Positions 35,731 through 62,885 of a stretch of 64,000 nt of DNA are shown in pieces; position 1 is the stretch's first letter; each line of letters opens with the position of its first letter. The notes below the pieces were generated by a model. It was not told where the DNA came from. It did no database searches and saw only the letters and a program-made list of their open reading frames with translations. The position numbers and the translations under genes were made by a program. The stretch comes from an uncultured delta proteobacterium (GTDB lineage: Bacteria > Desulfobacterota > Binatia > UBA9968), in contig CAWDPO010000023.1 in assembly GCA_963804165.1 (NCBI GenBank), positions 204,967-268,966 on the forward strand, read 5' to 3'.

Positions 35731-35744
35731 AGCGTCGCAACCGG

Positions 35745-43118: not shown

Positions 43119-43240
43119 CGCGCACCTCTTCAACGTAAAGAGATTTTAGGCTTCGTCGAATGATTCTGAAAAACCCAACACACTCTGGCTAGCCCACGCT
43201 ATTTTATCAGTTCGATCAAAGTCAAGCTTATTATCGCCGC

Positions 43241-43308
43241 AGGATTGAACTGGAACGCAACAGTCGCGTCTTGTAGGATTAAGTCGTTGGAGAATACAAT
43301 TCAATCCT
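43241..43308. repeat. full palindromic site (degenerate)
   Basis: AGGATTGAACTGGAACG...GGAGAATACAATTCAATCCT. Confidence 0.82.
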
Positions 43309-43332
43309 AGCTCGCCGCGTCGCTTTGTTCGG

Positions 43333-44318: not shown

Positions 44319-45135
44319 TGCACATACCATTACCCGTCATGTGTATCACGTGGAACGGTAGTAGAGAACAGTGAAATTTACGACGGGAAGACGGCAGTTT
44401 TTCGTCGCATGGGAAGACCGAAGTGAGTCGTGGCGTAGGGAGTCAATCGAATGTCGCCGAAGGTCAAGAAAAAGACGCTTGAGGGCCTTTATAGAAGTGC
44501 GGGTCTGGATCATTGTGGATAAGACACACTTAGGGGAGCGAGTACTATGCACATCACCGCCGGACCTTGGCCACGTTTCTCTATCGCAACTTTGGTTATT
44601 GGCCTGTGGATGCTGTGGCGGAGAAAGCAGAATTAACTTTGAGCCCGCGATGGTTTTGCGTGCAATCCTAATTTTGGTCACCGAGTTGCGACTAATTCGT
44701 CGAAACAAAACTGCGCCCCTGGGTGAGCGTCTGGCGTTTTTCGGTACGCGCGCCCATCCCATATGACCGTGAAGCTATTGGCCGCATCATGGATGATCTC
44801 GCAAGGCTATCGCTTCATTGAAGACGCAGAAGTCAAAGCCGCGATTCTCGAAGTGCTGATCGACTTGGGTCGTCAATTGGGCGAGCTTGGGACACCCAAC
44901 TATCATTGACCGTGGTTTCTGCACCTGTTCAAACAAATTTGAAAGAAAGGCAAAACAATGAAAGCGGAGAAGGACGATGGGTATAAGTGCCCACGATGTG
45001 ACGACCACATTCCGGAGCAGTTCTACTGCCGCGACTGCGGCTACGTGCCGAACTGGAGGCAGATTGAAACGACAAGACCCACAGAGAAGCGGCATAACTC
45101 ATGGAGCTGAGATGTCCTATCTAAATTCGACTGTG

Positions 45136-45544
45136 ATGACTTTCGTCTCCCTGCCAACGGCCTTGAACAACCGAAAACCGCTGATTGCCATCGTTGATGA
45201 CGATGAGCCTGTCTGCCGTGCAGTGAGACGACTGGTGCGATCGGTGGCGATGGACGCGGAAACATTCAACTTCAGGACAACAGTTTCTCGATCTGCTTGA
45301 AGCGATGCCTTCGTTTCAACCCAAATGTTTGATTCTGGATGTGCAAATGCCGGAGATGAATGGTCTTGAAGTCCAAGATTGGCTCGTGAAAAACGGCAAC
45401 ACGGTTCCCGTGATTTTTATCACGGCGCACGATGAGGTCGGCGTCCGTGACAAGGCGCTAGCCGCTGGCGCAGTTGCGTTTTTGCGTAAGCCTTTCAACG
45501 ACGAGCTTTTGATCAAGACGCTTCGCGAGGCGCTGAAGGACTGA
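45136..45544 (+). CDS. single-domain response regulator; frameshift near 45275
   Basis: IAIVDDD in 44977..45300; CLILDVQMPEMNG...ITAH...LRKPF in 45305..45544; stop lies 2 nt before a palindrome half-site. Confidence 0.8.
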
Positions 45545-45546
45545 TT

Positions 45547-45570
45547 TGAAGGAGAATTCAGTTCAATCCT
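45547..45570. repeat. palindromic-site right half
   Basis: TGAAGGAGAATTCAGTTCAATCCT. Confidence 0.9.
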
Positions 45571-45603
45571 GGCGTCGCAGTTTGTTTTCCCGGCATCATC
45601 GAA

Positions 45604-46558
45604 TCACTTTATCCGACCTGGCCAATACATTCCGCGGAATCGTCAGGCCGACCTGCTTTGCGGCTAACTAAAGTCGATCCATCCCACCAGCGCGGTGCCG
45701 AAATGCTCGCCATCAACGACCCGGAACGAGCATTCAAGTGACCTGCACGTAGCGACCCTTCTCGATCTCATAACCACGCACAAGGTGATGGCGCTCTAAG
45801 ACTTCGTTACAGACTGCACAGAGATGGCGGTGTTTGAGGCGTGACCCGCATTGGGCGTGTAAAAGATTGAAGAATGGTCGCTGTGTGGAGCTCGACCGGG
45901 ATGGCACCAAGCCAAATGGCCAGGAGGTCTTCGATGGCTCGATGCGGCGCGGGGCATCGGCTACCGGGCACCAAGCGATGAAGGCTTAAAGAAACAGATT
46001 GCACTGCCCTATCTTGATGGCGCTCTGGATCGTGCGCGAAAGCTCGAATAAAACTCCATTACGACGGACGGTGCATCTTTCCATCTGCTACTCTTAAATC
46101 CATGGCTCGCCCCATTGCCCGGAGCGTTCTGCGCTTTCAGAGCAGCGATGAACCTCCGGGCATACTCCAGTGATCGAACCCGCTGGCAACAGGATCGCCG
46201 TCCTGCGCAAAGACAATGGGAATCGTGGTCGTCGCTTTCTTGGCGGCACGGGTTACCGACGGACCAGCCGTTACGATGACATCGACCTTGAGACGCACCA
46301 GCTCGGCCGCAAGCTCACGCTCGCGATCCGCTTTTCCCTCTGCGTATCGATACTCAACGTCGATGTTTTCCCCCTCCACGTACGCCAGCTCGCGCAGCCC
46401 TGCCGGAATGCCGCGACGCGAGCGACAACGGCGGCGGGTTTGGTGTCAGCTAGGAATCCTATCCGTGAGACCTTCTTCGGCTGTTGCGCACCGGCTCTGA
46501 CTGCGAAAGCAAGCAGTACCACTACAAACAGGATTGATAAGGCACCCGCTTTCTTCAT
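45604..46558 (-). pseudogene. ABC substrate-binding protein gene with its middle replaced (3' stub ~45604-45665, 5' part ~46170-46558)
   Basis: MKKAG...ELVRLKVDVIVT...DGDPVASG at the 5' end; AAKQVGLTIPRNVLARSD at the 3' end; unrelated DNA between. Confidence 0.75.
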
Positions 46559-46659
46559 TGCACACACATGTATCACGCGGGACGCTACCAGAGAGAAAGT
46601 AACATTTAGGACGGAGGGCGACAGCGATTCTTCGGGTGAGAAAACCAGATTTTAAGCGT

Positions 46660-46722
46660 GAGATTGAACTGAACGACGCTTCAATGTAGATGCTGGCGGA
46701 GATTAAGCATTGAAGGAGAATT
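46660..46722. repeat. palindromic site, left part (interrupted; remainder at 49249..49263)
   Basis: GAGATTGAACTGAACGACGCTTCAATG...CATTGAAGGAGAATT| then element then |ATTCAGTTCAATCCT. Confidence 0.9.
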
Positions 46723-46869
46723 GGACTAAACCGCTTCGCGGTAGGCCGGAGGGCCGGAGTCCCTGCCATGACGTTCTTCCTGCTTTAGTTTTGCAGTTAT
46801 CATTTTTTTGACGGTGTGTCGTGTCGCAGTGATAGCCTCAGTGAAAATTTTTCACTCAAGGAGGCTGTC

Positions 46870-47715
46870 ATGGGAGCATTACGAGACCGGATGATCGAGG
46901 AGATGAAGCTGCGGAACTTTTCGGCTGCAACACAGAAGACGTACGTCTACGCGGTGACACGGCTAGCGAAATATCATGGCAAAGCGCCGGACCAGCTCGG
47001 TAAGGAGGAGATCCGAGCCTTTCTTGTGCATCTGATAGTGGAGCGGAAGTTATCGCCCAATGGTCTGACCGGCTACTGCTCGGGGCTGCGGTTTTTCTAT
47101 AACGAGACTCTGGGATGGGACGAGAACAAGCTGTTCATTCCACCGCGCAAGCAATCGTCACCTCTGGCGGAGGTCTTCAGTCCCGAGGAAATCGTGCGTC
47201 TGATCCGCGCGGCCCGAGGTCTCAAGCAGCGTGTGCTGTTAATGACCGCCTACTCGGCTGGACTGCGAGTCAGCGAGTTAGTCAATCTCAAGGTCAACGA
47301 CATCGATCCGGCGCGCATGACGCTACGTATCAGGCAAGGTAAAGGCGGCAAAGACCGTTACGCGATTTTGTCGCAGAACCTCCTTGCGGAACTGCGTGTG
47401 TATTGGAAACGCTACCGGTCCGCGGTCTGGCTTTTCCCCAACCGAGCCAAGAACGGCCCTTTGAGTCGAAACGAAGCGTGGCACATCTTCAATTCGGTCA
47501 AGAGAAGAGCGGGCCTTAAAAAGGGCCGTGGCATACACAGCCTGCGGGCATGTTTTGCCACTCATCTGTTGGAAGCGGGTGTGGACCTACGCTCGATCCA
47601 GTTGTTGATGGGGCACACCTCGCTTATGTCTACCCAGCGCTACTTGAGGCTATCGCCACAGAGCGTCAACCGTGCCCTTAGTCCGCTCGACCGATTACCG
47701 TTAACGACGGTCTAA
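46870..47715 (+). CDS. tyrosine recombinase (N-terminal SAM-like domain + catalytic domain)
   Basis: GGAGG RBS; GLRVSE, GKGGKDR, HSLR, LMGH and TQRY catalytic residues. Confidence 0.95.
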   Translation: MGALRDRMIEEMKLRNFSAATQKTYVYAVTRLAKYHGKAPDQLGKEEIRAFLVHLIVERKLSPNGLTGYCSGLRFFYNETLGWDENKLFIPPRKQSSPLAEVFSPEEIVRLIRAARGLKQRVLLMTAYSAGLRVSELVNLKVNDIDPARMTLRIRQGKGGKDRYAILSQNLLAELRVYWKRYRSAVWLFPNRAKNGPLSRNEAWHIFNSVKRRAGLKKGRGIHSLRACFATHLLEAGVDLRSIQLLMGHTSLMSTQRYLRLSPQSVNRALSPLDRLPLTTV

Positions 47716-47718
47716 GCC

Positions 47719-48909
47719 GTGGGCGCCGGCTCTGGACAGCCGGCAGCAAGAGGCGGCGTTGAACTGGCCGATATTTTTCGCGCCTATGGCGAGTCGTATC
47801 GCCGCCACCATCCGTTGCCGGTCTCCCATCTTAAGGTTATGCAGGCCGTGGAGCGCTGTCGCACTGCAGCTCTCGGAGGCCACCTCCAGCAGTGTGATGC
47901 CTGTGGCTTCGAGCGTCCCGCCTACAACTCCTGCCGCAATCGACACTGCCCTAAATGCCAATCGTTGGCGAAGGTCAAATGGCTCGATAAACAAAAGTCA
48001 GAACTGTTGCCGACCGGATATTTTCATCTGGTCTTTACCTTGCCGCACGAATTGAACCCGTTGATCCTGATCAACAAGAAACCTCTCATCAATATCCTGT
48101 TTCAATCGGTCTGGCAGACCTTGGCGCAGTTTGCCCGGAGTCATCTCGGTGGGAGCTTGGGGATCACCGCAGTTCTGCACACCTGGGACCAGACCCTGTT
48201 GGATCATTTTCATCTGCACTGTCTGGTTCCCGCCGGCGCGTTGTCCTTTGATCGAAACCGCTGGGTCCCGGCGCGTCAGGACTTTCTCTTTCCAGTCAAA
48301 GCCCTGAGCCGGGTCTTCCGCGCTAAGTTTCTCGACTCGCTCAAAAAGAGCTTCGATCAAAGCAAGTTGCTCTTCGTCGGACAGATCGCGCCCTTGGCCG
48401 ACGCCGACAGCTTTGGTGTACTTCTCAATGGATTGCGGAAAAAACCGTGGGTGGTCTATGCCAAAAAACCATTTGGCTCTCCCGTCTATGTCCTTGATTA
48501 CTTAGCTCGCTACACTCATCGTGTAGCACTCTCCAACGATCGCATCTGCTCGCTCCACAACCGGGAGGTCACCTTCACGTACCGCGATCGGAAAAATGAA
48601 GATCGACGTAAATTGATGACGCTGGGGGCCGAGGAGTTCATTCGACGCTTTTTGCTCCACGTCATCCCCAAGGGTTTCATGCGGGTGCGCCACTACGGCT
48701 TTTTAGCCAACCACCGCAAAGATTGTCTGTCGAAGTGTCGTCAACTCGTGGGACTTTCACCTGCACTCATCCCACCTCCTCAACGCTCTCCTGACGAGTT
48801 GATGCTGGCACTGAGGGGCATCGATATCCATCGCTGCCCCCGCTGCCAGACCGGAACGCTGATGTGGGTCTTCGACTTGGCGGTCTCCCGACCGTGGGAT
48901 TCGTCGTGA
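47719..48909 (+). CDS. IS91-family Y2 (HUH) transposase with Zn-binding N-terminus
   Basis: CDAC...SCRNRHCPKC, HLVFTLP, HTW...HFHLH, YLARY, RRFLLHV.P.GF.RVRHYG. Confidence 0.95.
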   Translation: MGAGSGQPAARGGVELADIFRAYGESYRRHHPLPVSHLKVMQAVERCRTAALGGHLQQCDACGFERPAYNSCRNRHCPKCQSLAKVKWLDKQKSELLPTGYFHLVFTLPHELNPLILINKKPLINILFQSVWQTLAQFARSHLGGSLGITAVLHTWDQTLLDHFHLHCLVPAGALSFDRNRWVPARQDFLFPVKALSRVFRAKFLDSLKKSFDQSKLLFVGQIAPLADADSFGVLLNGLRKKPWVVYAKKPFGSPVYVLDYLARYTHRVALSNDRICSLHNREVTFTYRDRKNEDRRKLMTLGAEEFIRRFLLHVIPKGFMRVRHYGFLANHRKDCLSKCRQLVGLSPALIPPPQRSPDELMLALRGIDIHRCPRCQTGTLMWVFDLAVSRPWDSS

Positions 48910-49267
48910 AGATCGCTCGATCAAATCAAAACCAGAGTCTTGCTGTTGCTCAGTGCCGGAGCCAATGCAGCGCTGTATTCTGTTCCGCCATTTTCCCTGC
49001 TACTAGCCCGCGCTACAGTGCGCGCAGCTCCCTGCTCGCCGCTACAAACCACATCCCATACCGCCCCATCATCTTGTTGCTCACCACTCAGCAGCGTCCG
49101 TTTACCTCATCCTTTCCTGTTCAATCCCCATAGGCAACGACTCTTGCCTCTCCCAGCGCTTTAGTCCAATGGGTTTTAACCTGAATGCGCCCGTTCTTCC
49201 CAGCTATCACCGATCGTTCTGCGCTCGCATTCAGGTTAAAACCTGTACATTCAGTTCAATCCTGGCG

Positions 49268-50242
49268 TTACTTAATCACCTTGTCAGCCCGTGCCAGCAC
49301 ATTTGGCGGAATCGTGAGACCGATCTGCTTCGCCGTCTTCAGATTGATCACCAGCTCGAACTTCGTCGGGGCTTCAACGGGCAAGTCCGCAGGCTTGGTC
49401 CCTTTCAGAATCTTATCCACATAGGTTGCGGCGCGGCGGTACAAGGTAGTGTAGTCCGACCCGTAGGACATAAGGCCGCCCGCCTCCACAAACTCTTTCT
49501 CCCAGTACATCGCTGGCAGTCGATGCTTAGCGACGAGTTCAACAATGCGCTTCCTGTTCGCGCTCGGGACAGGACCTTGGATCACGAGCAGCGCGTCGGC
49601 GCGCCTCTGGCTCAAGGCGCCGAACGACGGTTCGAGATCCTCCCGTCGTCTTATCTCAAGGGATAACGGCGTTAACCCCAGCGATGGTGCCACCGCCTCG
49701 GTCTCCTTGAATGCGACGACGGACGCTGTACCTTCTGGATTCCAGAGGATCGCCACCCGAGATGCCTTCGGCAAAACCTCCTTGATCAGTTCAAGCCCTT
49801 TAGTGCTCAACTCTGGAGAGAGGGTCGTGTTTCCAGTCACGTTGCCTCCGGGGCGTGCAAGGCTCGCGACAAGACCGATTCTCACAGGGTCGCCGCCCGC
49901 TGCGATCACGATCGGGATTGTCTTGGTTGCTTTGGCCGCCGCTCTCGCGGCCGTTAGGCCTCCCGTAACGATGACATCCATTTTGAGCCGTACTAGTTCA
50001 GTGGCTAGCTCAGGGTATTTCTCTGTTCGTCCTTCTGGATCTCGCTGTTCGATTATGATGCTCTTCCCCTCGATGTACCCGAGTTCGCGCAGACCCTGTT
50101 GAAAGGCATCGACGCGCTGCTGACCACCGCTCACGAGCATGCCTACTCGCGGAACTTTCGCCGGCTGCTGCGCCTCGACTATAACTGCAACAGCAAGCAG
50201 TATCACGGCAACCAACGCCGACGCCCAGCCCGCTTTTTTCAT
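49268..50242 (-). CDS. ABC transporter substrate-binding protein (ABC_sub_bind type), intact
   Basis: 324 aa, signal peptide, GDPV..GLVASLARPGGNVTG, GGLMSYG, YVDKILKG.KPADLPVE. Confidence 0.93.
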   Translation of the reverse strand: MKKAGWASALVAVILLAVAVIVEAQQPAKVPRVGMLVSGGQQRVDAFQQGLRELGYIEGKSIIIEQRDPEGRTEKYPELATELVRLKMDVIVTGGLTAARAAAKATKTIPIVIAAGGDPVRIGLVASLARPGGNVTGNTTLSPELSTKGLELIKEVLPKASRVAILWNPEGTASVVAFKETEAVAPSLGLTPLSLEIRRREDLEPSFGALSQRRADALLVIQGPVPSANRKRIVELVAKHRLPAMYWEKEFVEAGGLMSYGSDYTTLYRRAATYVDKILKGTKPADLPVEAPTKFELVINLKTAKQIGLTIPPNVLARADKVIK

Positions 50243-50340
50243 GGCCGCTACATTACCACGCGGAGCCTAGCGATGAAAAGTGTGATTTGCCGCAATAGAA
50301 GAACCAGAGTCTTCGAGGGGAAGAAGACCAATTTCGACGT

Positions 50341-50407
50341 AGGATTGAACTGAACGACGCTTCAGTCAAATCTCATAGGATTTAGTCGTAGGAGAAATCA
50401 GTTCAAT
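50341..50407. repeat. full palindromic site
   Basis: AGGATTGAACTGAACGACGCTTCA...CGTAGGAGAAATCAGTTCAAT. Confidence 0.88.
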
Positions 50408-50608
50408 TACAGCCTTAGCGTTGGCGTTGAGGGAGTGCTGAGGATCCGAAGCGATAAGGGAATCCAGCGGCAGGACTGCTGCGTTCCCCTCCACCGCTTT
50501 GTTAGTTAAGTTAGATAGTGTCATTTCACGCAATCGAGCAGTTGAAAGCGAGCCGAGAGCCGCTTGCAACGAACCGAGCCGAGGCGCTAAACGTCGAATC
50601 AACTGAAA

Positions 50609-51256
50609 TTGATGGAACCGATGAAGTTAATTAAACAGTTACCCGTTTGGCTGTTCGTCTCGCTGCTTCTGCTGGGAGCCGTCCCTACTTCAGCAATGGA
50701 GATGAGCGTCAGCGGCTCTCAGCTCATCCTCAGCGGTTTCATTAACGAGTTGGATTACGACAAATTCCTTTCGCACCTAACCCCAGCCATACGAACTGTC
50801 GTCTTCACCAACAGCCCGGGCGGGGTACATTTGATCGGGTTAGCCCTTGCTCACGAGATTCGACGCCGAGGGCTGTCGACCGTTGCCTTGGGGTACTGTA
50901 ACTCAGCCTGCGCCAATGCGTTCCTTGGTGGAGCGGATCGCCGGTTGGCCAATGACCGTAGCTACGTTGCGTTTCACGGCAATTACTCGTACCGGATCGG
51001 CAGACCTTTAACCGGACACTTCGGCGAGCTATCTGCCTTCTACAGCGAGATGACCAATGGACGGTTAAACGACCAGATGATTCAACTGTTCCTGAGCAAA
51101 GGGGAGCGCGGATTCGTCGGTTACTACCAGCGGGTGACGCGAAATTGTGAAGGCACAGAGCCCAAACGGCCCTCGGGCTGTCCGACGCTTCCAATCACGG
51201 CCTTGGAGCTCGGTATTCTTACGGCTCTCGACGACGTTGAGGTTAGCGAACAGTGA
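50609..51256 (+). CDS. exported ClpP/crotonase-like protein
   Basis: Signal peptide, LSGFI, NSPGG, CNSACANAFLGG..R, VAFH. Confidence 0.7.
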   Translation: MMEPMKLIKQLPVWLFVSLLLLGAVPTSAMEMSVSGSQLILSGFINELDYDKFLSHLTPAIRTVVFTNSPGGVHLIGLALAHEIRRRGLSTVALGYCNSACANAFLGGADRRLANDRSYVAFHGNYSYRIGRPLTGHFGELSAFYSEMTNGRLNDQMIQLFLSKGERGFVGYYQRVTRNCEGTEPKRPSGCPTLPITALELGILTALDDVEVSEQ

Positions 51257-51361
51257 ACATTACAGAATCCCTAAAGACGCAAATGGCCTGAAAGCGTTTT
51301 TACTCGCATAACGCGTTCGTGGATAGTCCTCAAACCTACAGTCAAATTCTGTAATCGACGT

Positions 51362-51385
51362 GAGATTGAACTTAACGACGCTTCA
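51362..51385. repeat. palindromic-site left half
   Basis: GAGATTGAACTTAACGACGCTTCA. Confidence 0.85.
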
Positions 51386-51454
51386 ACGCGATGCTAGCCT
51401 AATCCAAAACCAACAGCGGGTTTTCTTAGTTCCCCGCCGAGTTAGATCCAATGG

Positions 51455-51688
51455 TTAGCGGCTTATGCGCCTCGCCTCACTGTTTTCGCTGGTAGGCGTG
51501 CGAGCAAGTCTCCACAACCAAAGACTCAGACCGCCGAAAACGATAACAGCCAAAACGCTTGGCCACAATGGCATCGGATAACCACCTACAAGCACTTCTG
51601 GCCGTATTACAAGCCGCGCCAGCTGCGCAATGGCCAGCGAAGCGAACACCACGCTCGACACTAGCAATCCTGTAGTTTGGGAGTTCAT
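51455..51688 (-). CDS. small two-TM membrane protein
   Basis: GGAGG RBS; VFASLAIAQLARL...PLWPSVLAV. Confidence 0.65.
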   Translation of the reverse strand: MNSQTTGLLVSSVVFASLAIAQLARLVIRPEVLVGGYPMPLWPSVLAVIVFGGLSLWLWRLARTPTSENSEARRISR

Positions 51689-51850
51689 GCTGTCATGCCC
51701 TCCTAATCAATTAGGTGCCTTCAACGATAAGCGTGTCACCGCTGAAACAGGAGCGCAACATTGCAATTCTGGCGTCACGTTGCTGCGAGCAGCTGCTATC
51801 GGTGCGCATTTCCAGCACGGGTTGCGCGGAAGAACCAGATTTTTAGCCTA

Positions 51851-51883
51851 AGATTGACCTGAAGGAGAATTCAGTTCAACTCC
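51851..51883. repeat. collapsed palindromic site (left arm fused to right half)
   Basis: AGATTGACCTGAAGGAGAATTCAGTTCAACTCC. Confidence 0.75.
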
Positions 51884-51885
51884 AT

Positions 51886-51966
51886 GGTTAACGAATCAGG
51901 CTGAGAGGGCGAGGCCAGCGAGCGGAGCGAGCGGGTCGAAGATCCTTCTCAAGCCAATTGTTAGAC
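51886..51966 (-). other. integron attC site
   Basis: Minus strand: R'' GTCTAAC, 5-nt spacer, L'' GCTTGAGA (extra base), central loop, L' TCTCAGC, then R' G|TTAACC; 6 nt after the stop of 51973..52731. Confidence 0.75.
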
Positions 51967-51972
51967 CCCGTC

Positions 51973-52731
51973 TTATTCGAGATCCTCAGCGTATGAAAAC
52001 TGGACACCCATGCTTTGAAGGGCTTCCGTAACAGCAGCTCGCGCAAGTGCCTTGCCGAACGGCAGATAGTAACTGATCTTCTCCGAAAAATCTTTTCCCT
52101 CCTGTATCTGAACAATTTGAGCTGGAATTAAGTGACGCTCAACATTCGCAACAGTCATTCCCACGACTGCAATGCTCTTCTTCGAAGGAGTGCCCGAGAG
52201 GAGCGGTGCACCGCTCGCGCCCTGGAGCGCCGGAAATGAGACGAGAAATGTCGGTGTCTTGATTTTCTCAGGATACGTACTGTCGTACGAACGCACGATA
52301 TTTCCCTTGTGCGTATACGGCTCGAACGCAATGTGGGTTTGTCCGGGTGTTGGTTTTTCGATTTGCGTTCCGCTGTACTCGAACGTGAATACATCCGCAT
52401 TGAGTGCCGGATCGGATTTACCCAATGTAAGCGGCATAACCGTCGGAATATGTTCCAGCGGGACATCTGCAACGGCCAGGTCAAAATCCGGTGACGCTAG
52501 AACGCGCGAGATCGCGATAACCGGAATTCCTGTTTCACCGCGAAACGCAATGGCGTACTTTTCGTCGGCAGCTAATTGACATGATTCAAACACATGTTTC
52601 GCGGTTACAAGCCGAATGCTGTTCGCCTGTCCTACAAAGAATCCCGTCCCGAGCAATTCAGCAATGGGAACGGTTTTACTCGCCCTTACAATTGGTACGA
52701 TGGACAGCTCGGGACGAAGCTCTGCAGGCAT
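51973..52731 (-). CDS. trypsin-like serine peptidase domain protein (integron cassette gene)
   Basis: GTGFFV, VTAKHV, DLAV and GASGAP triad motifs; preceded on the minus strand by GTTAGAC (52754..52748). Confidence 0.78.
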   Translation of the reverse strand: MPAELRPELSIVPIVRASKTVPIAELLGTGFFVGQANSIRLVTAKHVFESCQLAADEKYAIAFRGETGIPVIAISRVLASPDFDLAVADVPLEHIPTVMPLTLGKSDPALNADVFTFEYSGTQIEKPTPGQTHIAFEPYTHKGNIVRSYDSTYPEKIKTPTFLVSFPALQGASGAPLLSGTPSKKSIAVVGMTVANVERHLIPAQIVQIQEGKDFSEKISYYLPFGKALARAAVTEALQSMGVQFSYAEDLE

Positions 52732-52832
52732 ATTGCGGCTATCGTGGGTCTAACGCGAAGCTAACCGTCGCGCCTTCCAAGGAGCGCCCCGCATGGTCTT
52801 CCACGCCTTTCGTGCCGCCTCACTTTGCCTAG

Positions 52833-54320
52833 CAGTCCGTGGTGAAAGTCCGTGTTGGCTTCAACAAATAACAGAAAATTGATTGGATCATTGGTCACAC
52901 CAGCTAAGGCATAGTACAGTCGAGTGCATGGCGATGGGAAAACGTAAGCAGAGGTTGAGGCAATCGACGATATGGATCGCCACGAGCGATCTGCCGACGA
53001 CGGCCGCACATCCATTCTATGAGCGGATCAATCAGATTTTGGATAAAGCCGGGTTCGATGCGCATGTGGAGAAGTTGTGCGCGCCGTTTTACGCCGAGCG
53101 GATGGGCCGGCCGAGTCTGGCACCGGGTCGCTATTTTCGCCTGCTCGTTGTCGGGTACTTTGAAGGGCTCGATTCCGAGCGCGCGATAGCCTGGCGCGCC
53201 GCCGATTCGTTTGCGTTGCGCCAATTTTTGGATTTGGAGTTGCCGGAGGCACCGCCCGACCATTCGACGATTTCGCGCACACGTCGGTTGATCGACTTGG
53301 AGACGCACCGGGAGGTTTTCACTTGGATTCTCAATCAGCTCGCTGAAGCGGGCTTGGTCAAGGGCAAAACGATCGGCATGGACGCGACCACGCTCGAAGC
53401 CAATGCGGCGCTGCGCAGTATCGTGCGACGCGATACGGGTGAAAACTATCAGGAGTTTCTCACCCAGCTGGCCAAGGCCTCCGGCATTGAGACGCCCACA
53501 CGCGAGGACTTGGCGCGCCTTGACCGCAAGCGCAAGAACAAGGGCTCCAACGATGACTGGACCCATCCCCATGACCCGGACGCCAAAATCACCAAGATGA
53601 AGGATGGACGCACGCACTTGGCGCACAAGGCCGAGGACGCGGTCGATCTGGAGACGGGGGCGGTGGTGGGCGTGACCGTGCAGGGCGCCGATCAAGGGGA
53701 TCCCACCACGAGTATCAAGACGCTGATTGAGGCCGCCGAGCAGATCGAGGCGGTCATCCCTGAGAGCGATGGGCCAAAAGAGGTCGTCGCCGACAAGGGG
53801 TATCATAGCAATCAAGCGCTGGTGGCCCTGGAAGCGGTGGGCGTGCGCAGCTACATTTCGGAGCCCGATCGCGGGCGGCGAAACTGGAAGGATAACCCCG
53901 AGGCGCGCAACGCCGTATATCGCAACCGCCGACGGATTAGCGGCGTACGCGGCAAGCGGCTGCTCCGTCAGCGGGGGGAACTCCTCGAGCGGCCGTTTGC
54001 CCATCTGTATGAAACTGGAGCGATGCGACGTGTCTACCTGCGGGGTCATCAGAACATCCTCAAACGCATACTGCTACATGCCGCGGCGTTGAATCTTGGA
54101 TTGTTGATGCGAACACTGTTCGGTGTGGGCACGCCGCGCAGCCTGCAGGGCCGCCTGGCGGCGCTTTTTGCAGTTGTATGGTCATTCGTAAGGTCCTCAG
54201 AAACGCTTTGGGAGCGTCTTCGAAGCTGGTATCGACCGATAACACGACGATCGCCTTTCACATGTCTACCAAAGTGGAGCGAATCAAATTCCCGCTCGTG
54301 AGCTCTTTTGCCACGGGCTG
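52833..54320 (+). mobile_element. IS1182/IS5-like insertion sequence with CTAG target duplication
   Basis: CTAG at 52829..52832 and 54321..54324; terminal IRs CAGTCCGTGGTGAAAG / CAGCCCGTGGCAAAAG (13 of 16 match). Confidence 0.88.
52928..54301 (+). CDS. DDE transposase (DUF772 + DDE)
   Basis: GRPSLAP, PDHSTISR, MDATTLEANA, VADKGY, LERPFAH. Confidence 0.92.
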   Translation: MAMGKRKQRLRQSTIWIATSDLPTTAAHPFYERINQILDKAGFDAHVEKLCAPFYAERMGRPSLAPGRYFRLLVVGYFEGLDSERAIAWRAADSFALRQFLDLELPEAPPDHSTISRTRRLIDLETHREVFTWILNQLAEAGLVKGKTIGMDATTLEANAALRSIVRRDTGENYQEFLTQLAKASGIETPTREDLARLDRKRKNKGSNDDWTHPHDPDAKITKMKDGRTHLAHKAEDAVDLETGAVVGVTVQGADQGDPTTSIKTLIEAAEQIEAVIPESDGPKEVVADKGYHSNQALVALEAVGVRSYISEPDRGRRNWKDNPEARNAVYRNRRRISGVRGKRLLRQRGELLERPFAHLYETGAMRRVYLRGHQNILKRILLHAAALNLGLLMRTLFGVGTPRSLQGRLAALFAVVWSFVRSSETLWERLRSWYRPITRRSPFTCLPKWSESNSRS

Positions 54321-54555
54321 CTAGATGCCACTGGCCCTCCGTCTGACACCGCTGTCTGCCCAACTATTAAGTGAACTGCCGGCTCTTCCGGCGGGTTATC
54401 CGGGAACCCGAAATCTGAGAAGAGCAAAATGAGCTGCAATATCCGTCAACAAGCCGTGCTTTGTCAATCGTTTCACCCGACAAACGCTGCCCGCAGAGCG
54501 GTATATCCAGATATCAGCCCGCGGTGTATCTTGGCGGATCAACCGAAATCGCCGT

Positions 54556-54613
54556 AGGATTGAACTGAACGACGCTTCAAAGAAATCTGGCGGGATTAAG
54601 CAGAAGGAGAATT
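54556..54613. repeat. palindromic site, left part (interrupted; remainder at 57140..57154)
   Basis: AGGATTGAACTGAACGACGCTTCA...GAAGGAGAATT| then element then |ATTCAGTTCAATCCT. Confidence 0.9.
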
Positions 54614-54760
54614 GGACTAAACCGCTTCGCGGTAGGCCGGAGGGCCGGAGTCCCTGCCATGACGTTCTTCCTGCTTTAGTTTTGCAGTTATCATTTTTTT
54701 GACGGTGTGTCGTGTCGCAGTGATAGCCTCAGTGAAAATTTTTCACTCAAGGAGGCTGTC

Positions 54761-55606
54761 ATGGGAGCATTACGAGACCGGATGATCGAGGAGATGAAGC
54801 TGCGGAACTTTTCGGCTGCAACACAGAAGACGTACGTCTACGCGGTGACACGGCTAGCGAAATATCATGGCAAAGCGCCGGACCAGCTCGGTAAGGAGGA
54901 GATCCGAGCCTTTCTTGTGCATCTGATAGTGGAGCGGAAGTTATCGCCCAATGGTCTGACCGGCTACTGCTCGGGGCTGCGGTTTTTCTATAACGAGACT
55001 CTGGGATGGGACGAGAACAAGCTGTTCATTCCACCGCGCAAGCAATCGTCACCTCTGGCGGAGGTCTTCAGTCCCGAGGAAATCGTGCGTCTGATCCGCG
55101 CGGCCCGAGGTCTCAAGCAGCGTGTGCTGTTAATGACCGCCTACTCGGCTGGACTGCGAGTCAGCGAGTTAGTCAATCTCAAGGTCAACGACATCGATCC
55201 GGCGCGCATGACGCTACGTATCAGGCAAGGTAAAGGCGGCAAAGACCGTTACGCGATTTTGTCGCAGAACCTCCTTGCGGAACTGCGTGTGTATTGGAAA
55301 CGCTACCGGTCCGCGGTCTGGCTTTTCCCCAACCGAGCCAAGAACGGCCCTTTGAGTCGAAACGAAGCGTGGCACATCTTCAATTCGGTCAAGAGAAGAG
55401 CGGGCCTTAAAAAGGGCCGTGGCATACACAGCCTGCGGGCATGTTTTGCCACTCATCTGTTGGAAGCGGGTGTGGACCTACGCTCGATCCAGTTGTTGAT
55501 GGGGCACACCTCGCTTATGTCTACCCAGCGCTACTTGAGGCTATCGCCACAGAGCGTCAACCGTGCCCTTAGTCCGCTCGACCGATTACCGTTAACGACG
55601 GTCTAA
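54761..55606 (+). CDS. tyrosine recombinase
   Basis: Identical to 46870..47715. Confidence 0.95.
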   Translation: MGALRDRMIEEMKLRNFSAATQKTYVYAVTRLAKYHGKAPDQLGKEEIRAFLVHLIVERKLSPNGLTGYCSGLRFFYNETLGWDENKLFIPPRKQSSPLAEVFSPEEIVRLIRAARGLKQRVLLMTAYSAGLRVSELVNLKVNDIDPARMTLRIRQGKGGKDRYAILSQNLLAELRVYWKRYRSAVWLFPNRAKNGPLSRNEAWHIFNSVKRRAGLKKGRGIHSLRACFATHLLEAGVDLRSIQLLMGHTSLMSTQRYLRLSPQSVNRALSPLDRLPLTTV

Positions 55607-55609
55607 GCC

Positions 55610-56800
55610 GTGGGCGCCGGCTCTGGACAGCCGGCAGCAAGAGGCGGCGTTGAACTGGCCGATATTTTTCGCGCCTATGGCGAGTCGTATCGCCGCCACC
55701 ATCCGTTGCCGGTCTCCCATCTTAAGGTTATGCAGGCCGTGGAGCGCTGTCGCACTGCAGCTCTCGGAGGCCACCTCCAGCAGTGTGATGCCTGTGGCTT
55801 CGAGCGTCCCGCCTACAACTCCTGCCGCAATCGACACTGCCCTAAATGCCAATCGTTGGCGAAGGTCAAATGGCTCGATAAACAAAAGTCAGAACTGTTG
55901 CCGACCGGATATTTTCATCTGGTCTTTACCTTGCCGCACGAATTGAACCCGTTGATCCTGATCAACAAGAAACCTCTCATCAATATCCTGTTTCAATCGG
56001 TCTGGCAGACCTTGGCGCAGTTTGCCCGGAGTCATCTCGGTGGGAGCTTGGGGATCACCGCAGTTCTGCACACCTGGGACCAGACCCTGTTGGATCATTT
56101 TCATCTGCACTGTCTGGTTCCCGCCGGCGCGTTGTCCTTTGATCGAAACCGCTGGGTCCCGGCGCGTCAGGACTTTCTCTTTCCAGTCAAAGCCCTGAGC
56201 CGGGTCTTCCGCGCTAAGTTTCTCGACTCGCTCAAAAAGAGCTTCGATCAAAGCAAGTTGCTCTTCGTCGGACAGATCGCGCCCTTGGCCGACGCCGACA
56301 GCTTTGGTGTACTTCTCAATGGATTGCGGAAAAAACCGTGGGTGGTCTATGCCAAAAAACCATTTGGCTCTCCCGTCTATGTCCTTGATTACTTAGCTCG
56401 CTACACTCATCGTGTAGCACTCTCCAACGATCGCATCTGCTCGCTCCACAACCGGGAGGTCACCTTCACGTACCGCGATCGGAAAAATGAAGATCGACGT
56501 AAATTGATGACGCTGGGGGCCGAGGAGTTCATTCGACGCTTTTTGCTCCACGTCATCCCCAAGGGTTTCATGCGGGTGCGCCACTACGGCTTTTTAGCCA
56601 ACCACCGCAAAGATTGTCTGTCGAAGTGTCGTCAACTCGTGGGACTTTCACCTGCACTCATCCCACCTCCTCAACGCTCTCCTGACGAGTTGATGCTGGC
56701 ACTGAGGGGCATCGATATCCATCGCTGCCCCCGCTGCCAGACCGGAACGCTGATGTGGGTCTTCGACTTGGCGGTCTCCCGACCGTGGGATTCGTCGTGA
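55610..56800 (+). CDS. IS91-family Y2 (HUH) transposase
   Basis: Identical to 47719..48909. Confidence 0.95.
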   Translation: MGAGSGQPAARGGVELADIFRAYGESYRRHHPLPVSHLKVMQAVERCRTAALGGHLQQCDACGFERPAYNSCRNRHCPKCQSLAKVKWLDKQKSELLPTGYFHLVFTLPHELNPLILINKKPLINILFQSVWQTLAQFARSHLGGSLGITAVLHTWDQTLLDHFHLHCLVPAGALSFDRNRWVPARQDFLFPVKALSRVFRAKFLDSLKKSFDQSKLLFVGQIAPLADADSFGVLLNGLRKKPWVVYAKKPFGSPVYVLDYLARYTHRVALSNDRICSLHNREVTFTYRDRKNEDRRKLMTLGAEEFIRRFLLHVIPKGFMRVRHYGFLANHRKDCLSKCRQLVGLSPALIPPPQRSPDELMLALRGIDIHRCPRCQTGTLMWVFDLAVSRPWDSS

Positions 56801-57146
56801 AGATCGCTCGATCAAATCAAAACCAGAGTCTTGCTGTTGCTCAGTGCCGGAGCCAATGCAGCGCTGTATTCTGTTCCGCCATTTTCCCTGCTACTAGCCC
56901 GCGCTACAGTGCGCGCAGCTCCCTGCTCGCCGCTACAAACCACATCCCATACCGCCCCATCATCTTGTTGCTCACCACTCAGCAGCGTCCGTTTACCTCA
57001 TCCTTTCCTGTTCAATCCCCATAGGCAACGACTCTTGCCTCTCCCAGCGCTTTAGTCCAATGGGTTTTAACCTGAATGCGCCCGTTCTTCCCAGCTATCA
57101 CCGATCGTTCTGCGCTCGCATTCAGGTTAAAACCTATACATTCAGT

Positions 57147-57407
57147 TCAATCCTGCGCTTTCTGTTGGCCTGAAACGTTCACTTGATTACCTTGTCCGCT
57201 CTCAGCCGCGACGCCGGAAAAGAGCAACAGTGGGGTGAGCAATCCCAGGTGCTTGATCACCACAAGAATAATCACGCTCGCCAGCACTCCGACCGATAGA
57301 CTTGTATTCGACGAAATGTAGTACAGGACGATTCCGTGACCGATCAGAATGGCCGCTGCCACCAGGAGTATCCAAGGCCGCGTAAGCAGACGCCTGTGTC
57401 CCATCAT
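57147..57407 (-). CDS. small two-TM membrane protein
   Basis: ATG overlaps the methyltransferase stop; two hydrophobic helices; stop codon falls inside the palindrome arm. Confidence 0.55.
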   Translation of the reverse strand: MMGHRRLLTRPWILLVAAAILIGHGIVLYYISSNTSLSVGVLASVIILVVIKHLGLLTPLLLFSGVAAESGQGNQVNVSGQQKAQD

Positions 57408-58079
57408 GGTATCGGCCTGTTCGTTGCGGTGTTCGTAATTGCGTGCGGCGATGGGGCCATCGCGAGAACAAAATGCAAGTCGCGGAGTCCCACCGCACCG
57501 CTCTCGGCAATGTTTAAACCCGCTTCGCTTAGCGTGCCAATGATGTCGCGCAGCTTGACGTAACCATGGCGGTGAAAGTGCGCGAGGAAGCCTTTTTTTC
57601 CTCGCCGGCGCCTCCGAAATCAACGACAAGGACGCGTCCACGCGGCTTCAGCACCCTGCGCATCTCGCAGGCGCATTCCAGACGTGCTTTGCGCGGCAAA
57701 TGATGAAGCATCACCGAGCTTAGCACAGCGTCGAATTGAGCGTTGGGAAACGGCAGCGCCTGAGCAAGCCCATTCTTGAAGAAAACCTCGACGCCGGCTT
57801 TTCTCGCCTTGTTGCTTGCTCTCGCAAGCATCTCCGGCGACGCATCGATCCCATACACCGTGCCGGTCGGCCAGACATGCCGTTTGGCCGCGATCGCAAG
57901 GGTTCCGGTCCCGCAGCCCACGTCCAGGACCGACTCGCCAGGCTCCAGGCGCGCCAGTCGGAGAACTTTCTCACAAACGCCCCCTCCCGGCCGAGCATGA
58001 CCAGCCTGACCATGAGATCATAGGCACCCGCCGCGTGCAGCACCTGGCCGATTGGACCGGACTTGTGATTCTGTTCCAT
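57404..58079 (-). CDS. class I SAM methyltransferase (UbiE-like), frameshifted
   Basis: DVGCGTG, GIDASPEML, ALPFP..FDAV.SS.MLHH, EMRRVLKP across three frames. Confidence 0.78.
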
Positions 58080-58247
58080 CGTTATCCTCACTTGGCATTC
58101 CTGAATAAAAGTATCAAAGTGGAAATCGAATTCAGTTTCGAGTGTAGCTGAAAAGCCAACCGAGTGAAGGGACAGCAAACGTAGACGTGTCCGATAGCGG
58201 ACAAAAACACTCACGTTGTTCATCTCCTGCGGAGGCTCAGAGGAAAA

Positions 58248-58840
58248 GTGACGCTAACAGCAAACCCAGCTAAGGATCGGCGGATTCAAAAGACGCAACG
58301 CCTCTTGCGTGAGGCGCTCGCTTCTTTGATTCGCGAAAAGCCCTATAACTCCATCGTTGTGAAACAGATTCTCGATCACGCCAACGTCGGCAGATCGACC
58401 TTCTATACGCACTTTCGCGACAAAGACGATCTGCTCGTCAGTTGCATACATGATATGCTTCACTCCGTTGACGCGATGGGCTGGCGTCCGCGGGAAAAGG
58501 TTACGAAACAATGATTGGGTTCAGCCTTCCCATCTTCGAGCATATACATCGGCACATGCATACCGGCGAGGCAAAAATGGGCAGCAAGAGTCGAGAGGTC
58601 ATTCATGAACGCCTTCGCAAGGTGCTCGCTGAGCTGATTGCCGATGACATTCGAAAAGATTTTCAAGGCCGGCGAAAAACGGCGGGCCAGATTTCACTGG
58701 ACCTTCTTGCTCAATACGTGACTTCGACATTCATTCTCGTGCTCAATTGGTGGGTGGAGTGTGGTCGGCTTCCTCCGAAGGAAGCCAATGACTTGTTTCG
58801 TGCGCTGATCTTGCCGACGCTGGCTGCCAACTTGGAGTGA
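58248..58840 (+). CDS. TetR family regulator, frameshift near 58490
   Basis: DRRIQKT...ANVGRSTFYTHFRDK HTH; C-terminal half in 58511..58840; divergent from the methyltransferase. Confidence 0.82.
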
Positions 58841-58896
58841 ATGAAATAGAGCGCTGGACATTCAATGGGACAAAACGTGCGGAGGAGAACACCAAC

Positions 58897-59140
58897 ATGG
58901 CATACTTTACACGGCGCTCATTGTGCCGCGGGTTTGCTGCAATGGCCGTTCTCCCCCTGGCGGCGCGGTGCGGAGCGATGGCGCAGACTTATCCGGAGCG
59001 CAAGATCCAAACGAGTATCCTCGAAGTTCCCGGCGCTCGATCTATGAGACTCACGGCAGGGCCCGGTCATGCTCATGGTTCCGGGGGCCAGCGGCACAGC
59101 CGAAAGCTCCAGCGGTGTAGTAAGCCGCCAGATGTTCCGT
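58897..59140 (+). pseudogene. 5' fragment of a Tat-exported (alpha/beta hydrolase-like) gene
   Basis: GGAG RBS, TRRSL twin-Arg signal, LEVPGAR, then frame break and truncation. Confidence 0.4.
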
Positions 59141-59328
59141 GACGTGGTGCGCAGATTCTATGTCCGAGATCCGTTCGGAAAGCTGATAAACATTTTACAA
59201 CATGAGTGAGATGTTGCGCGGCTAACAGCCGGCGCGGCGTGCTTGGATTATTCCACAACTGATTGCTCCCAGGCTTTGAGGAATAAAACGCTATACGTTA
59301 GGCCGCCCCTCACGCGGATGACAAAAGA

Positions 59329-60787
59329 ATGTCTGTACACTCAGTGATGAACCGGTCGCCATATCACTTGGGTTTCTGCACCCTGGATACGGAAACTAGC
59401 TTGGACGACCTGCCCGTCCGAGGCACGGTTCCGCCCTGGCTCACCGGCACCTTGGTGCGGACCGCTCCAGCGAAGTTCGAGGTGGGTGACCGGAGCTACA
59501 ATCATTGGTTCGACGGGCTGGCCATGCTGCACAAGTTCGCCTTCACGGGCGGTCGCGTCGCGTATGCGAACCGCTATCTCCGTAGCCGGTCGTATCTTGA
59601 GGCGACGACAACGGGTAAGATCAGTCGGGGCGAGTTCGCCACCGACCCATGCCGGACCCTGTTCCACCGCGTGGCCGCCTGGTTCTGGCCGAAGTTCACT
59701 GATAACTGCAACGTCAGCGTCAATAAATTGGCCAGCGAGGTCGTCGCCTACACCGAAACGCGGATGCCGATTCGCTTCGATCCGGACACGTTGAACACGC
59801 TCGGTGGGTACGACTATGACGAGCGGATCAAGGGGCCGGTCTCCACTGCGACCCGCACCTCGACCACGCGCGAGGTCGGCACTACACCTACATGTTGGAA
59901 TTTGGTCGGAGGAGCAAGTATCACCTCTTTGGCATCGATCAGGGGACGGGACGAGAGGTGGTCGTCGCCACGCTCTCTGCCGACCGACCCGCGTACATGC
60001 ACTCGTTTGGGATGAGTGAACGGTATCTTGTCCTGGTGGAATTCCCTCTCGTGGTCAACCCGCTTCGGCTCAAGTTCAGTGGCAAGCCGTTCATCCGGAA
60101 TTACCAATGGGAACCGGATCGCGGGGCCCGGTTCCACGTCGTCGATAAGGAGAGCGGGCAAGTGGTGCGGACAGCGCGGAGCGGGGCGGTCTTTGCCTTC
60201 CATCACGTCAACGCCTTCGAAGAGGGCGACGAGATTGTAGTGGACATCGTAGCCTTCCCGGATTCAGGCGTCATCGATCAGCTTTACCTCGAGCATCTGC
60301 GGTCGGCCGAGCCGGTGATGACGACAGGGAAGCTTACCCGCTTCCGTATCGGCTCGAGTGGCGACGCCCCTGACGAGAGGCGTTGGAGGCCCCGATCTAG
60401 TTTCCCCGCATTAACTACCGCTGCCGCGCCGGACGGCGGTACAGCTACGTGTACGGAGCTGGGAATGAGGTGCAGGGAAACTTCATCGACAACCTCGTGA
60501 AGTTGGACCTAGAGCATAATACGACCTCGTCTTGGTACCAGGAGGGCTGTTACCCCGGAGAGCCTGTATTCGTGGCGAGACCGGATGCGGCGGACGAGGA
60601 CGACGGGTCATACTCTCGGTTGTGCTGGATGCTAAGAAGGCCGCGTCCTTTCTGCTGATCCTGGACGCCTCGAGCTTTCGGGAGTTGGCCCGCGCGGGAG
60701 GTGTCACACCACATCCCGTTTGGGTTCCACGGGAATTACTTCGCGGAGACGAGCGGGCCGGAGTCGTTTCGAGACCTCCACCGATAA
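59329..60787 (+). CDS. carotenoid oxygenase (RPE65/LSD) family protein, several frameshifts
   Basis: V.G.VP.WL.G, HWFDGLAM, YMHSF, FHHVNAFE and GEPVFV motifs in successive frames. Confidence 0.82.
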
Positions 60788-61057
60788 CGCATTGCCCCAA
60801 AGACCTACACCCAATAACCCCACACCTCCCCCCCTGAACTCACGCCCCGAAATGCGGGGCGCCCAGCGGGGCTAGGAAGGCGGCCCAACAATCATGGTTG
60901 CTCGCGTCCCACCAGCACCAGAATTCTGGTGTGCGGTTTTGCCTGTATCGCGCGTCTTTTCTCCCCAGGAGGATCTGTCATACTTCTGTAGGGGATGTCG
61001 AATGCGCTCACCCGGTTCGACAATAGGGGAGTGAGTTGCAACGCAAAGGAGAAGACC

Positions 61058-61816: not shown

Positions 61817-61991
61817 GGGCTAAATTGGCTTTCTAGTATCTTAGCGATTAGGGATGCTCGGTGGATTTGTTGCTCGGGTTTTTATTTCTGCTTACCTCCT
61901 GGAGTGACCGCCAATCCGAAAGGCGTTCATGAATGCAAGGTTCTTCCAGGAGATGGCGGTGCGATTCCGACCGTGGCGCTCTACATTTGAG

Positions 61992-62870: not shown

Positions 62871-62885
62871 GCGATTGCCGCGTGG

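Follow-up and report, generated by a model that had tools for sequence, protein, structure and literature searches.

Insertion sequences of the IS91 family (IS91, IS801, IS1294) move with a Y2 transposase of the HUH class that has an N-terminal zinc ribbon, they leave no duplication, and their two ends are unlike, with a palindrome at terIS and a hairpin at oriIS. The part of PMC13181058 that deals with this family gives the target tetranucleotide beside oriIS as CTTG, GTTC or GTCC. It describes one subterminal palindrome at terIS, beside a cleavage tetranucleotide resembling that of the target (GTTC in IS801 and IS1294), circles that join oriIS and terIS, insertion of the bottom-strand single-stranded circle by TnpA alone, and an overlapping upstream gene, orf121, that sharpens terIS cleavage in IS91. 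Here we describe a two-gene relative of IS91 that is present twice in a 64,000-nucleotide stretch of DNA from an uncultured delta proteobacterium of the Binatia. We call the whole stretch the window (G000:C23:204967-268966, reaching the contig end); G000 is the assembly that holds it, of 7.5 megabases (Mb) and 81% complete. Both copies lie in palindromes that resemble gene-cassette recombination sites. The same spot is occupied by dozens of related copies from soil bacteria, so we regard the element as a site-specific parasite of such sites.

The element agrees with IS91 in its enzyme and its unlike ends, in having xTTC beside oriIS and a similar tetranucleotide at terIS, and in its tandem or circle-type junctions of oriIS with terIS. 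There are two differences. It has a catalytic tyrosine recombinase where IS91 has orf121, and it targets one (A/G)TTC within a structured palindrome of 72 base pairs (bp), whereas for IS91 any GTTC or CTTG will do; in the window copies the tetranucleotide is ATTC. Integrase + IS91 pairs on rhizobial and other plasmids have the same gene order and end anatomy, and we take the ISShvi3-type members of ISfinder to be two-gene elements of this kind. The Binatia-type lineage is specific for cassette palindromes, while other integrase + IS91 lineages have other targets.

Other mobile elements also home to cassette recombination sites. The portion of PMC9229058 that treats them names IS1111-attC insertion sequences and group IIC-attC introns, and it notes in one sentence an integrase + IS91 element (ISShvi3) beside an attC site. 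The target class is the same as ours, but IS1111-attC uses a DEDD transposase and the introns a ribozyme with a reverse transcriptase, where our element has an HUH transposase and a tyrosine recombinase. Set against both, the choice of opposite arms by sub-lineages is a feature of the present element. Integron cassettes and the Xer-dependent integration of phage CTX resemble it in a different way: they share a circular single strand and a bulged-hairpin junction (both predicted here), a cut at the edge of an unpaired spacer, and a recombinase of the Xer/IntI clade. The element differs from them in having its own HUH enzyme, and its integrase is without the IntI insert and has an integrating role that is only proposed. 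The HUH enzymes of IS200/IS605 and REP/RAYT also act on hairpin-bearing single strands and insert beside a short motif like their own cleavage site; they differ in being Y1 enzymes of unrelated families with no recombinase partner. In the literature we searched there is no description of how integrase-bearing IS91 elements select their targets, of IS91-family targeting of cassette sites, of lineage-specific arm choice, or of a role for the integrase in integrase-bearing IS91 elements. As far as that search goes, annotated two-gene integrase + IS91 elements were already known; the targeting of cassette sites and the arm choice are new.

Insertion at one position of a palindrome

The two copies in the window have the same orientation and differ by a single base, G at 49245 versus A at 57136. 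They are the only near-identical copies in the assembly, and they are laid out with their host sites as follows.

46658..46722, no strand: host palindrome 1, left part; arm GAGATTGAACTGAA (match 46660-46673), spacer CGACGC, inner stem-loop, spacer GGAGA, ATT at 46720-46722
46723..49248, plus strand: element copy 1, 2526 bp
49249..49263, no strand: host palindrome 1, right part; ATT + arm CAGTTCAATCCT
54554..54613, no strand: host palindrome 2, left part; loop unlike that of site 1, terminating in GGAGA-ATT
54614..57139, plus strand: element copy 2, 2526 bp; A at 57136 gives the end TATAC; open reading frames (ORFs) 54707/54758-55606 and 55610-56800
57140..57154, no strand: host palindrome 2, right part; ATT + arm CAGTTCAATCCT

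Each copy runs GGACTAAACC...AAAACCT(G/A)TAC, and both occupied sites read GAAGGAGA-ATT^element^ATT-CAGTTCAATCCTG, where a caret marks a junction. ATT brackets the copies at the bubble/stem junction of two different palindromes of about 72 bp. Uninterrupted sites read GGAGA-ATT-CAGTTCAATCC with a single ATT, and they are seen in the window, in paralogous site bodies of the assembly (e.g. C8:26423) and in metagenome contigs that join 46683 to 49249. One triplet in an empty site and one on each side in an occupied site is what is expected if the left triplet is the terIS tetranucleotide. For the palindrome arm (at most 3 mismatches) the window gives 27 matches, where shuffled sequences give 5.3 on average and never more than 11.

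A preliminary description of this locus, made from the sequence, took the two copies to be independent insertions at the identical base, and we agree. Identity between the two copy regions spans 46712-49264, passes through the conserved parts of the palindrome, and then ends. The loops and outer flanks beyond differ, so these are two insertions at separate sites and not a segmental duplication. One could still argue for a segmental duplication, or for an artefact of assembly, as the origin of the second copy, given that the copies are 2525/2526 identical and only 7.9 kilobases (kb) apart. We find this hardly credible at all. Beyond the abrupt end of the identity, one base separates the copies, the same insertion geometry is repeated in 63 other contexts, and public contigs of four soil/sediment runs break at the element ends.

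The same description proposed site-specific insertion into a hairpin family and named the alignment of homologue flanks as the check. We gathered copies of the window type (lineage A) from genome contigs, relatives and metagenome contigs, and placed their ends by conserved motifs. The 108 end records came to 101 after dropping identical flank pairs, and 77 right flanks had at least 11 bases. The arm CAGTTCAATCC (at most 3 mismatches of 11) stands directly after a 3-base triplet in 67 of these 77 de-duplicated right flanks. These insertions represent 63 distinct downstream contexts and 45 distinct site bodies. By comparison, at most 476 of the 120,900 [GA]TTC sites in the assembly are arm-like. 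The element was also found in contigs of soil/sediment runs from 13 studies, and those from four runs show empty sites with a single ATT. The flanking sequences confirm, in our opinion, that the element is site-specific for cassette hairpin sites generally across the lineage.

Ten right flanks are exceptions. The arm is shifted by one base in three (L179, L185, L192), two (L195, L221) adjoin the left end of another copy, L129 is a spurious motif match, and L028 belongs to a more distant clade and has a duplicated end. The other three (L019, L023, L173) adjoin other sequences; L023 adjoins a GTTC that is 57 bases past the arm position in the homologous flank of L022. In the more distant relative L028 (4543-4580) the terminal AAAACCCTGTAC-GTTA is tandemly duplicated ahead of GTTAGGC. 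Diverged pairs of the window lineage on C18 and C30 of the assembly both adjoin GTTCAGTTCAATCCT on the right. The left flank of the C18 pair is the reverse complement of the other arm's spacer; these pairs therefore occupy the mirror position, on the opposite strand of a palindrome.

Sub-lineages use different arms. Where both flanks are readable, 35 events follow a GCGTC-like spacer and 14 a GGAGA-like spacer. All such copies that end in TGTAC are in GGAGA arms (11/11), and none of the 35 GCGTC-arm copies ends this way; the remaining three GGAGA events end TATAC (window copy 2), TAAAC and TATTC. GCGTC-GTT sites associate with TATCC-like ends and GGAGA-ATT sites with TGTAC. GGAGA arms have the triplet ATT, and in GCGTC arms it is mostly GTT. 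The left triplet matches the right one in 38/49 events, and the mismatched events involve GTA and GAT variants on either side. We also considered the ATT/GTT triplet as a target duplication and ruled this out, since discordant events outnumber concordant ones among those with non-GTT triplets. Arm choice is inherited within element lineages. In a tree of 60 full-length copies, those in the GGAGA/ATT arm fall into two distinct clades, both of which adjoin GCGTC users, and this suggests that the arm has been switched at least twice.

The cassette-like array that hosts the element

Both copies lie in a longer array of genes and palindromes.

35717..64000, minus strand: cassette-like array hosting both copies, running off the contig end
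about 35717, 42016, 43241-43308, 45537-45570, 50338-50410, 51362, 51850-51883, 62857 and 63950 (off the contig end): array palindromes or half-sites

The array genes are mostly on the minus strand, each followed by a site oriented TTCTCC...GCGTCG-TTCAG, and the same layout is found on C21 of the assembly. In the sense of the genes the palindrome consists of an arm (AGGATTGAACTGAA), TTCTCC, an arm ... an arm, GCGTCG and an arm (TTCAGTTCAATCCT), and it measures 70-76 bp. A regular-expression search gives 53 site pairings in the assembly, some of them nested sub-matches; the sites are clustered about 0.9-2.2 kb apart with mostly co-oriented single genes. A folded site has an outer stem, a bubble and an inner stem. 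Integron attC sites are imperfect palindromes, 55-140 bp in length, that combine two simple sites with inverted arms around a spacer of 5-6 nucleotides in each, and the host palindrome has this two-simple-site layout. The attC consensus is RYYYAAC for R'' and GTTRRRY for R'; the host palindrome has ACTGAAT and GTTCAGT, each one or two departures away.

There is also evidence that these sites recombine. Twelve site pairs share only their upstream or only their downstream side, at 80-100% identity, and the homology ends within GCGTCG^TTCAGTTCAATC, a conserved block that limits the resolution of the breakpoints. Cassettes therefore recombine in this block, which is where the GTT lineage of the element also inserts. 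The palindromes behave as cassette recombination sites, and we call them attC-like because their links to integron integrases are weak. A profile search found no IntI in the assembly, with the limits that its completeness is 81% and that the contig ends inside the array. Of 41 relatives, 9 have integron integrases above the cut-off, one being the unpublished G005. The palindrome family is missing beside IntI in 6 relatives (13 loci), the sole exception being 36 kb from the intI of G018, on the wrong side, and a hairpin scan near the IntI genes of relatives gave nothing clear.

Some other features of these arrays deserve mention. Minimal sites of 36 bp (arm, 6-base spacer, arm) occur at 51850-51883 of the window and at C5:22618 and C8:28309 of the assembly, and they look like the full site minus its inner part. 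At 35660-35730 and 62800-62870 of the window there are half-sites (only ...GATTGAAGGAGAATTCA(A/G)TTCAATCCT) after a shared block of about 40 bases, TTGGGAAGCAC.TC.CGGACAAAAGGCGGACA, which may be the end of another inserted element or cassette type. Four minus-strand cassettes (35758-36240, 43333-43974, 49268-50242, 63089-63868) carry paralogues or fragments of PF04392, an ABC transporter substrate-binding family, an unusually repetitive cargo. A DDE transposase (DUF772 + DDE_Tnp_1) at 52883-54301 on the plus strand lies between the two copies and represents a second kind of insertion sequence in the array. At an array edge in G018 (L143:9974-10876, contig C11) a frameshifted Xer-like gene, 35% identical to the element integrase, ends in the half-site GCCGTCG-TTCAGTTCAATTCT. 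We considered it as a dedicated array recombinase and set this aside, on account of the frameshift and because G000 holds no close homologue.

Genes, ends and the proposed route of insertion

The features within the element are given here for copy 1.

46723..46760, plus strand: left (terIS-like) end; GGACTAAACC, then subterminal palindrome ACCGC-TTC-GCGGT at 46730-46742 (ACCGCTTCGCGGT), conserved in relatives
46867..47715, plus strand: tyrosine recombinase, 282 amino acids from an ATG after AAGGAGG (the listed ORF begins with GTG at 46816); Xer/IntI-like, without the IntI-specific insert
47719..48909, plus strand: IS91-family Y2 HUH transposase, 396 amino acids; N-terminal zinc ribbon, HFHLH, YLARY
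49160..49248, plus strand: right (oriIS-like) end; TTTAGTCCAAT at 49160-49170, hairpin with an 18-bp stem (49172-49189 with 49226-49243), then TGTAC

The preliminary description recognized a two-gene integrase + IS91 element, and the protein domains confirm it. The integrase has Phage_integrase (PF00589, 128 bits) and SAM_4 (PF13495, 73 bits). The transposase exceeds the curated cut-off of NF033538 (430.6 bits, cut-off 125) and has Y2_Tnp (PF04986, 200.3 bits) and Zn_Tnp_IS91 (PF14319, 111.9 bits). The two genes are in one frame, separated by one stop codon and one codon. The best curated profiles for the integrase are archaeal XerA (180.6 bits, cut-off 220) and the integron integrase TIGR02249 (156.3 bits, cut-off 265), both below their cut-offs. 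It fails as an IntI, since the match to TIGR02249 covers positions 4-181 and about 246-315 and skips about 182-245, the IntI-specific part. Its best solved relatives are the XerA-like protein 4a8e and IntI4 (2a3v). The catalytic R, K, HxxR, H and Y are invariant in 24/24 diverse members, down to about 30% identity, and R134, K159, H224, R227, H250 and Y259 are invariant in a 20-row alignment. In the transposase H163, H165, H167 and Y261 are invariant in 18/18 aligned members and Y265 is at least 90% conserved. A predicted complex of the two proteins scored 0.00, which is evidence neither for nor against binding. In a Sphingobium isolate record (L033:2119-4218) the pair forms a single open frame of 700 amino acids with no intervening stop, one of two such cases among about 146 pairs.

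In the window copies and their relatives the left end is xTT^GGACTAAACC and the right end is the 18-bp hairpin plus 5 nucleotides, then ^ATTC or ^GTTC. These are distinct ends of the IS91 type, with subterminal palindromes and no classical terminal inverted repeats. There is one departure: the left end ATTGGACTAAA with its preceding ATT is the inverted partner of TTTAGTCCAAT at 49160-49170. Insertion without duplication beside a tetranucleotide of the GTTC/CTTG type is also seen, with GTTC after most GCGTC-arm copies and ATTC in the window copies. The predicted circle junction ...AAAACCTGTAC-ATT-GGACTAAACC would fold into a long hairpin with a bulge (-31 to -36 kcal/mol), and the cut would fall where the bulge meets the outer stem. 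The host site folds with the same geometry, its cut being at the edge of the unpaired spacer. Head-to-tail junctions of the form ...CCTATCC-GTT-GGACTAAACC are present in the metagenome contigs L195 and L221.

Two resemblances between host arm and element should not be overread. The host arm matches the element's last hairpin arm at 14/16 positions with one gap, yet 31/300 shuffles equal this, so it is not evidence. About 130 bases from the right end (49117-49133 and 57008-57024) the element carries CTGTTCAATCCCCATAG, which contains the host arm's GTTCAATCC; this is probably chance, because relatives carry TTACAATCCCCATAG there.

Its genes and ends place the element in the IS91 family, as an autonomous member of the subgroup with an Xer/IntI-like tyrosine recombinase gene directly upstream of the Y2 HUH gene. 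We believe that the Y2 transposase performs the insertion, into a folded cassette site, and we would put the probability of this at roughly 55%. From the end anatomy we infer movement by a rolling circle. The transposase would nick beside the right-end hairpin (oriIS), replication would displace one strand up to the left end (terIS), and the single-stranded circle would be inserted beside a target (A/G)TTC without duplication. The left xTT would belong to the element and the right xTTC to the target. That target is not any GTTC but the single (A/G)TTC at the unpaired-spacer/outer-stem junction of the attC-like site. Folded as a single strand, the site would have the geometry of the element's end, in which a hairpin is followed by 5-6 unpaired bases, the cut comes next, and xTT and a stem come last. 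The GGAGA-ATT arm is used by sub-lineages whose left end has ATT, both window copies among them; those whose left end has GTT use the GCGTC-GTT arm of the opposite strand. The integrase would act somewhere in the cycle, e.g. in the resolution of circles or multimers, in the choice of end or target, or in insertion itself.

We favor insertion by the Y2 enzyme because the end anatomy and the head-to-tail junctions fit the IS91 rules and because the folded site and the predicted junction share their geometry. The head-to-tail junctions, both those in L195 and L221 and the tandems in a Sunxiuqinia genome that share one TGTT, fit the joining of oriIS to terIS in IS91. The preliminary description had instead read ATT as the shared core of a tyrosine recombinase. 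The IS91 terIS and target tetranucleotides reproduce the same junctions, xTT^G...C^xTTC, so there is no need to invoke such a core for an xTT on both sides.

Several observations weigh against this reading. The integrase is intact in all members and always adjoins the transposase, so there is a recombination step for which the plain IS91 model has no use. The insertion point of the GTT lineage is the cassette crossover itself, GCGTCG^TTCAG. The outer stem of the predicted junction, GTCCAAC...GTTGGAC, fits the integron R''/R' consensus. The left triplet is other than GTT in 10/35 GCGTC-arm events (GTA, GAT, ATT, TTA), where simple inheritance predicts rare variation, and the two triplets are discordant in 11/49 events, which neither a rolling-circle nor a duplication model explains. 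We list here as well that no circle junction was seen in the public contigs of four runs, although contigs cannot reveal rare forms and the result has no weight either way; the public runs with the element number 24, all stored as contigs, and four were examined for circle junctions and empty sites. The nearest solved and curated relatives of the integrase are XerA and IntI, and members of the Xer/IntI clade integrate single strands in folded form. The section of PMC9345347 on integron cassettes and phage CTX describes both as combining tyrosine recombinases with replication.

The preliminary description inferred that HUH-generated circles are integrated site-specifically, with ATT as the shared core. 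Spelled out, this is a cycle of two enzymes, in which the Y2 protein only copies out a single-stranded circle and the element's own integrase recombines the attC-like junction hairpin with the host site at xTT, in the manner of integron cassettes and phage CTX. The element would then be a self-integrating cassette, with HUH copy-out, an attC-like junction, and a recombinase that pastes at the crossover and whose arm is set by the matching ATT/GTT triplet. This is possible, but we are doubtful of it. It would account for the invariant catalytic residues (24/24) and a gene pair kept across phyla, it agrees with the best curated and solved matches (XerA and IntI4) and with a junction hairpin cut at the same boundary as the host site, and the coincidence of GTT-lineage insertion with the cassette crossover and the fused frame of L033 also speak for it. 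So do distant relatives that adjoin GTTAGAC, GTTGGGC, GTTAGGC (twice), GTTAGGG and similar sequences, 4/7 distinct flanks fitting GTTRRRY. However, IS91 TnpA alone inserts a single-stranded circle at GTTC or CTTG, as the relevant part of PMC13181058 has it, and the junction anatomy needs no more than this. The integrase is without the IntI-specific insert (TIGR02249 156 bits vs cut-off 265), TGTT is all that is common to the unrelated, non-palindromic insertion flanks of Bacteroidota relatives, and the arm similarity between junction and host site is not above chance, its best local match being the one that 31/300 shuffles equal.

A different idea is that the element is a passenger. It would behave as an integron cassette that starts TTGGAC and ends in an attC-like hairpin of its own, and an integron integrase of the host would carry it between sites. 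Enzymes of that kind score above the curated cut-off in 9/41 relatives, and the boundaries of the GTT lineage equal cassette boundaries. We consider it improbable all the same. No IntI was found in the 81% complete assembly, the IntI surroundings in 6 relatives (13 loci) are without the palindrome family except for the stretch 36 kb from the intI of G018, arm choice and flanking triplet are inherited with the element lineage, tandem copies and insertions outside the sites exist, and both window copies have the arm and orientation opposite to those of cassettes. The reverse proposal, left as a second branch by the preliminary description, is that the element's integrase services the arrays and so supplies the cassette recombinase. 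In its favor no IntI was found next to the arrays, the integrase is Xer/IntI-like and intact, and G000 has the most arms (61) and the most elements. But arrays are also found in G018 (41 arms, 92% complete), G017 (15), G003 (14), G024 (12) and G004 (10), and none of these five has a match to the Y2 protein at E <= 1e-30. Apart from the frameshifted Xer-like gene already mentioned, none of the tyrosine recombinases beside the arrays of G018 is of the element type. Arrays exist in relatives where no element was found, so they are independent of it and the element is their guest or parasite; that it supplies their recombinase is very unlikely. The parasite branch of the preliminary description thus fits the data. 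Its interpretation stands for the element type, the independent insertions and the site specificity, while the ATT core is not needed and the supply of a recombinase is unlikely.

Relatives of the element and its significance

Among contigs from one genome per species, an integrase match is present in 62/72 related loci, and it is directly upstream of the transposase wherever the locus is intact. Of the ten loci without one, three are truncated copies and the other seven start no more than about 130 bases from the transposase match. The hosts, by record name, are Binatia and 'delta proteobacterium' metagenome-assembled genomes (MAGs), Pyrinomonadaceae, Verrucomicrobia, Brocadia, Bacteroidota, Gemmatimonadota and sphingomonads. 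The transposase also matches 426 plasmid records, and several of the 25 listed are annotated as IS91 family transposase with tyrosine-type recombinase/integrase. The Sinorhizobium meliloti plasmid pSmeRU11d has the same end anatomy, with CTT^GGACTAACCCGC on the left and a subterminal repeat and hairpin on the right. As far as these matches tell, the integrase + Y2 pair is an old and widespread two-gene unit.

Other lineages of the family insert elsewhere. A second lineage of integrase + Y2 pairs in the assembly, lineage B, lies outside the palindromes (C10:35.1-38.4 kb, C41:57.3-61.5 kb and 0.9-4.7 kb, C5:1.4-5.6 kb, C37:1-3.3 kb, C9:3.5-7 kb; also L119 and L125). Its ends are GTT^GAACTAAACC on the left and ...GGGATAAAACGCTATAC^GTT on the right. 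In 4/5 distinct left flanks (T/A)GTATA(T/C)T stands 4-5 bases ahead of the insertion point, and several of the right flanks have GTTAGAC, GTTGGGC or GTTAGGC, in agreement with GTTRRRY. Near cassettes and lineage-B insertions (L096:18048-18169, the flanks of L019 and L021, the upstream flank on C5) there are recurrent palindromes of the type GTATATTGGATATAC, which may be operators or another target family. The Sunxiuqinia MAG (Bacteroidota; L046-L059, L073, L075, L083) holds at least 14 copies of a 2467-bp relative with TGTT at both ends and unrelated flanks; its head-to-tail tandems share one TGTT, and the left flanks often have TATAC or TGTAC a few bases upstream.

As movers of genes, IS91-type elements and their ISCR relatives are important but poorly understood. 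The lineage described here amounts to a natural experiment, with a defined 72-bp structured target, dozens of independent insertions, and two arm preferences that track small changes at the ends. It makes both a division of work between HUH and Xer-like enzymes and the guidance of single-strand insertion by hairpins testable. Alongside IS1111-attC insertion sequences and group IIC-attC introns, the element makes a third kind that homes to cassette recombination sites, and this is relevant to the disruption, rearrangement and spread of arrays in soil bacteria. If the two-enzyme cycle were true, an insertion sequence would bring with it a single-strand integration pathway like that of integrons and CTX, and through it IS91-type elements and cassette systems might be linked in evolution.

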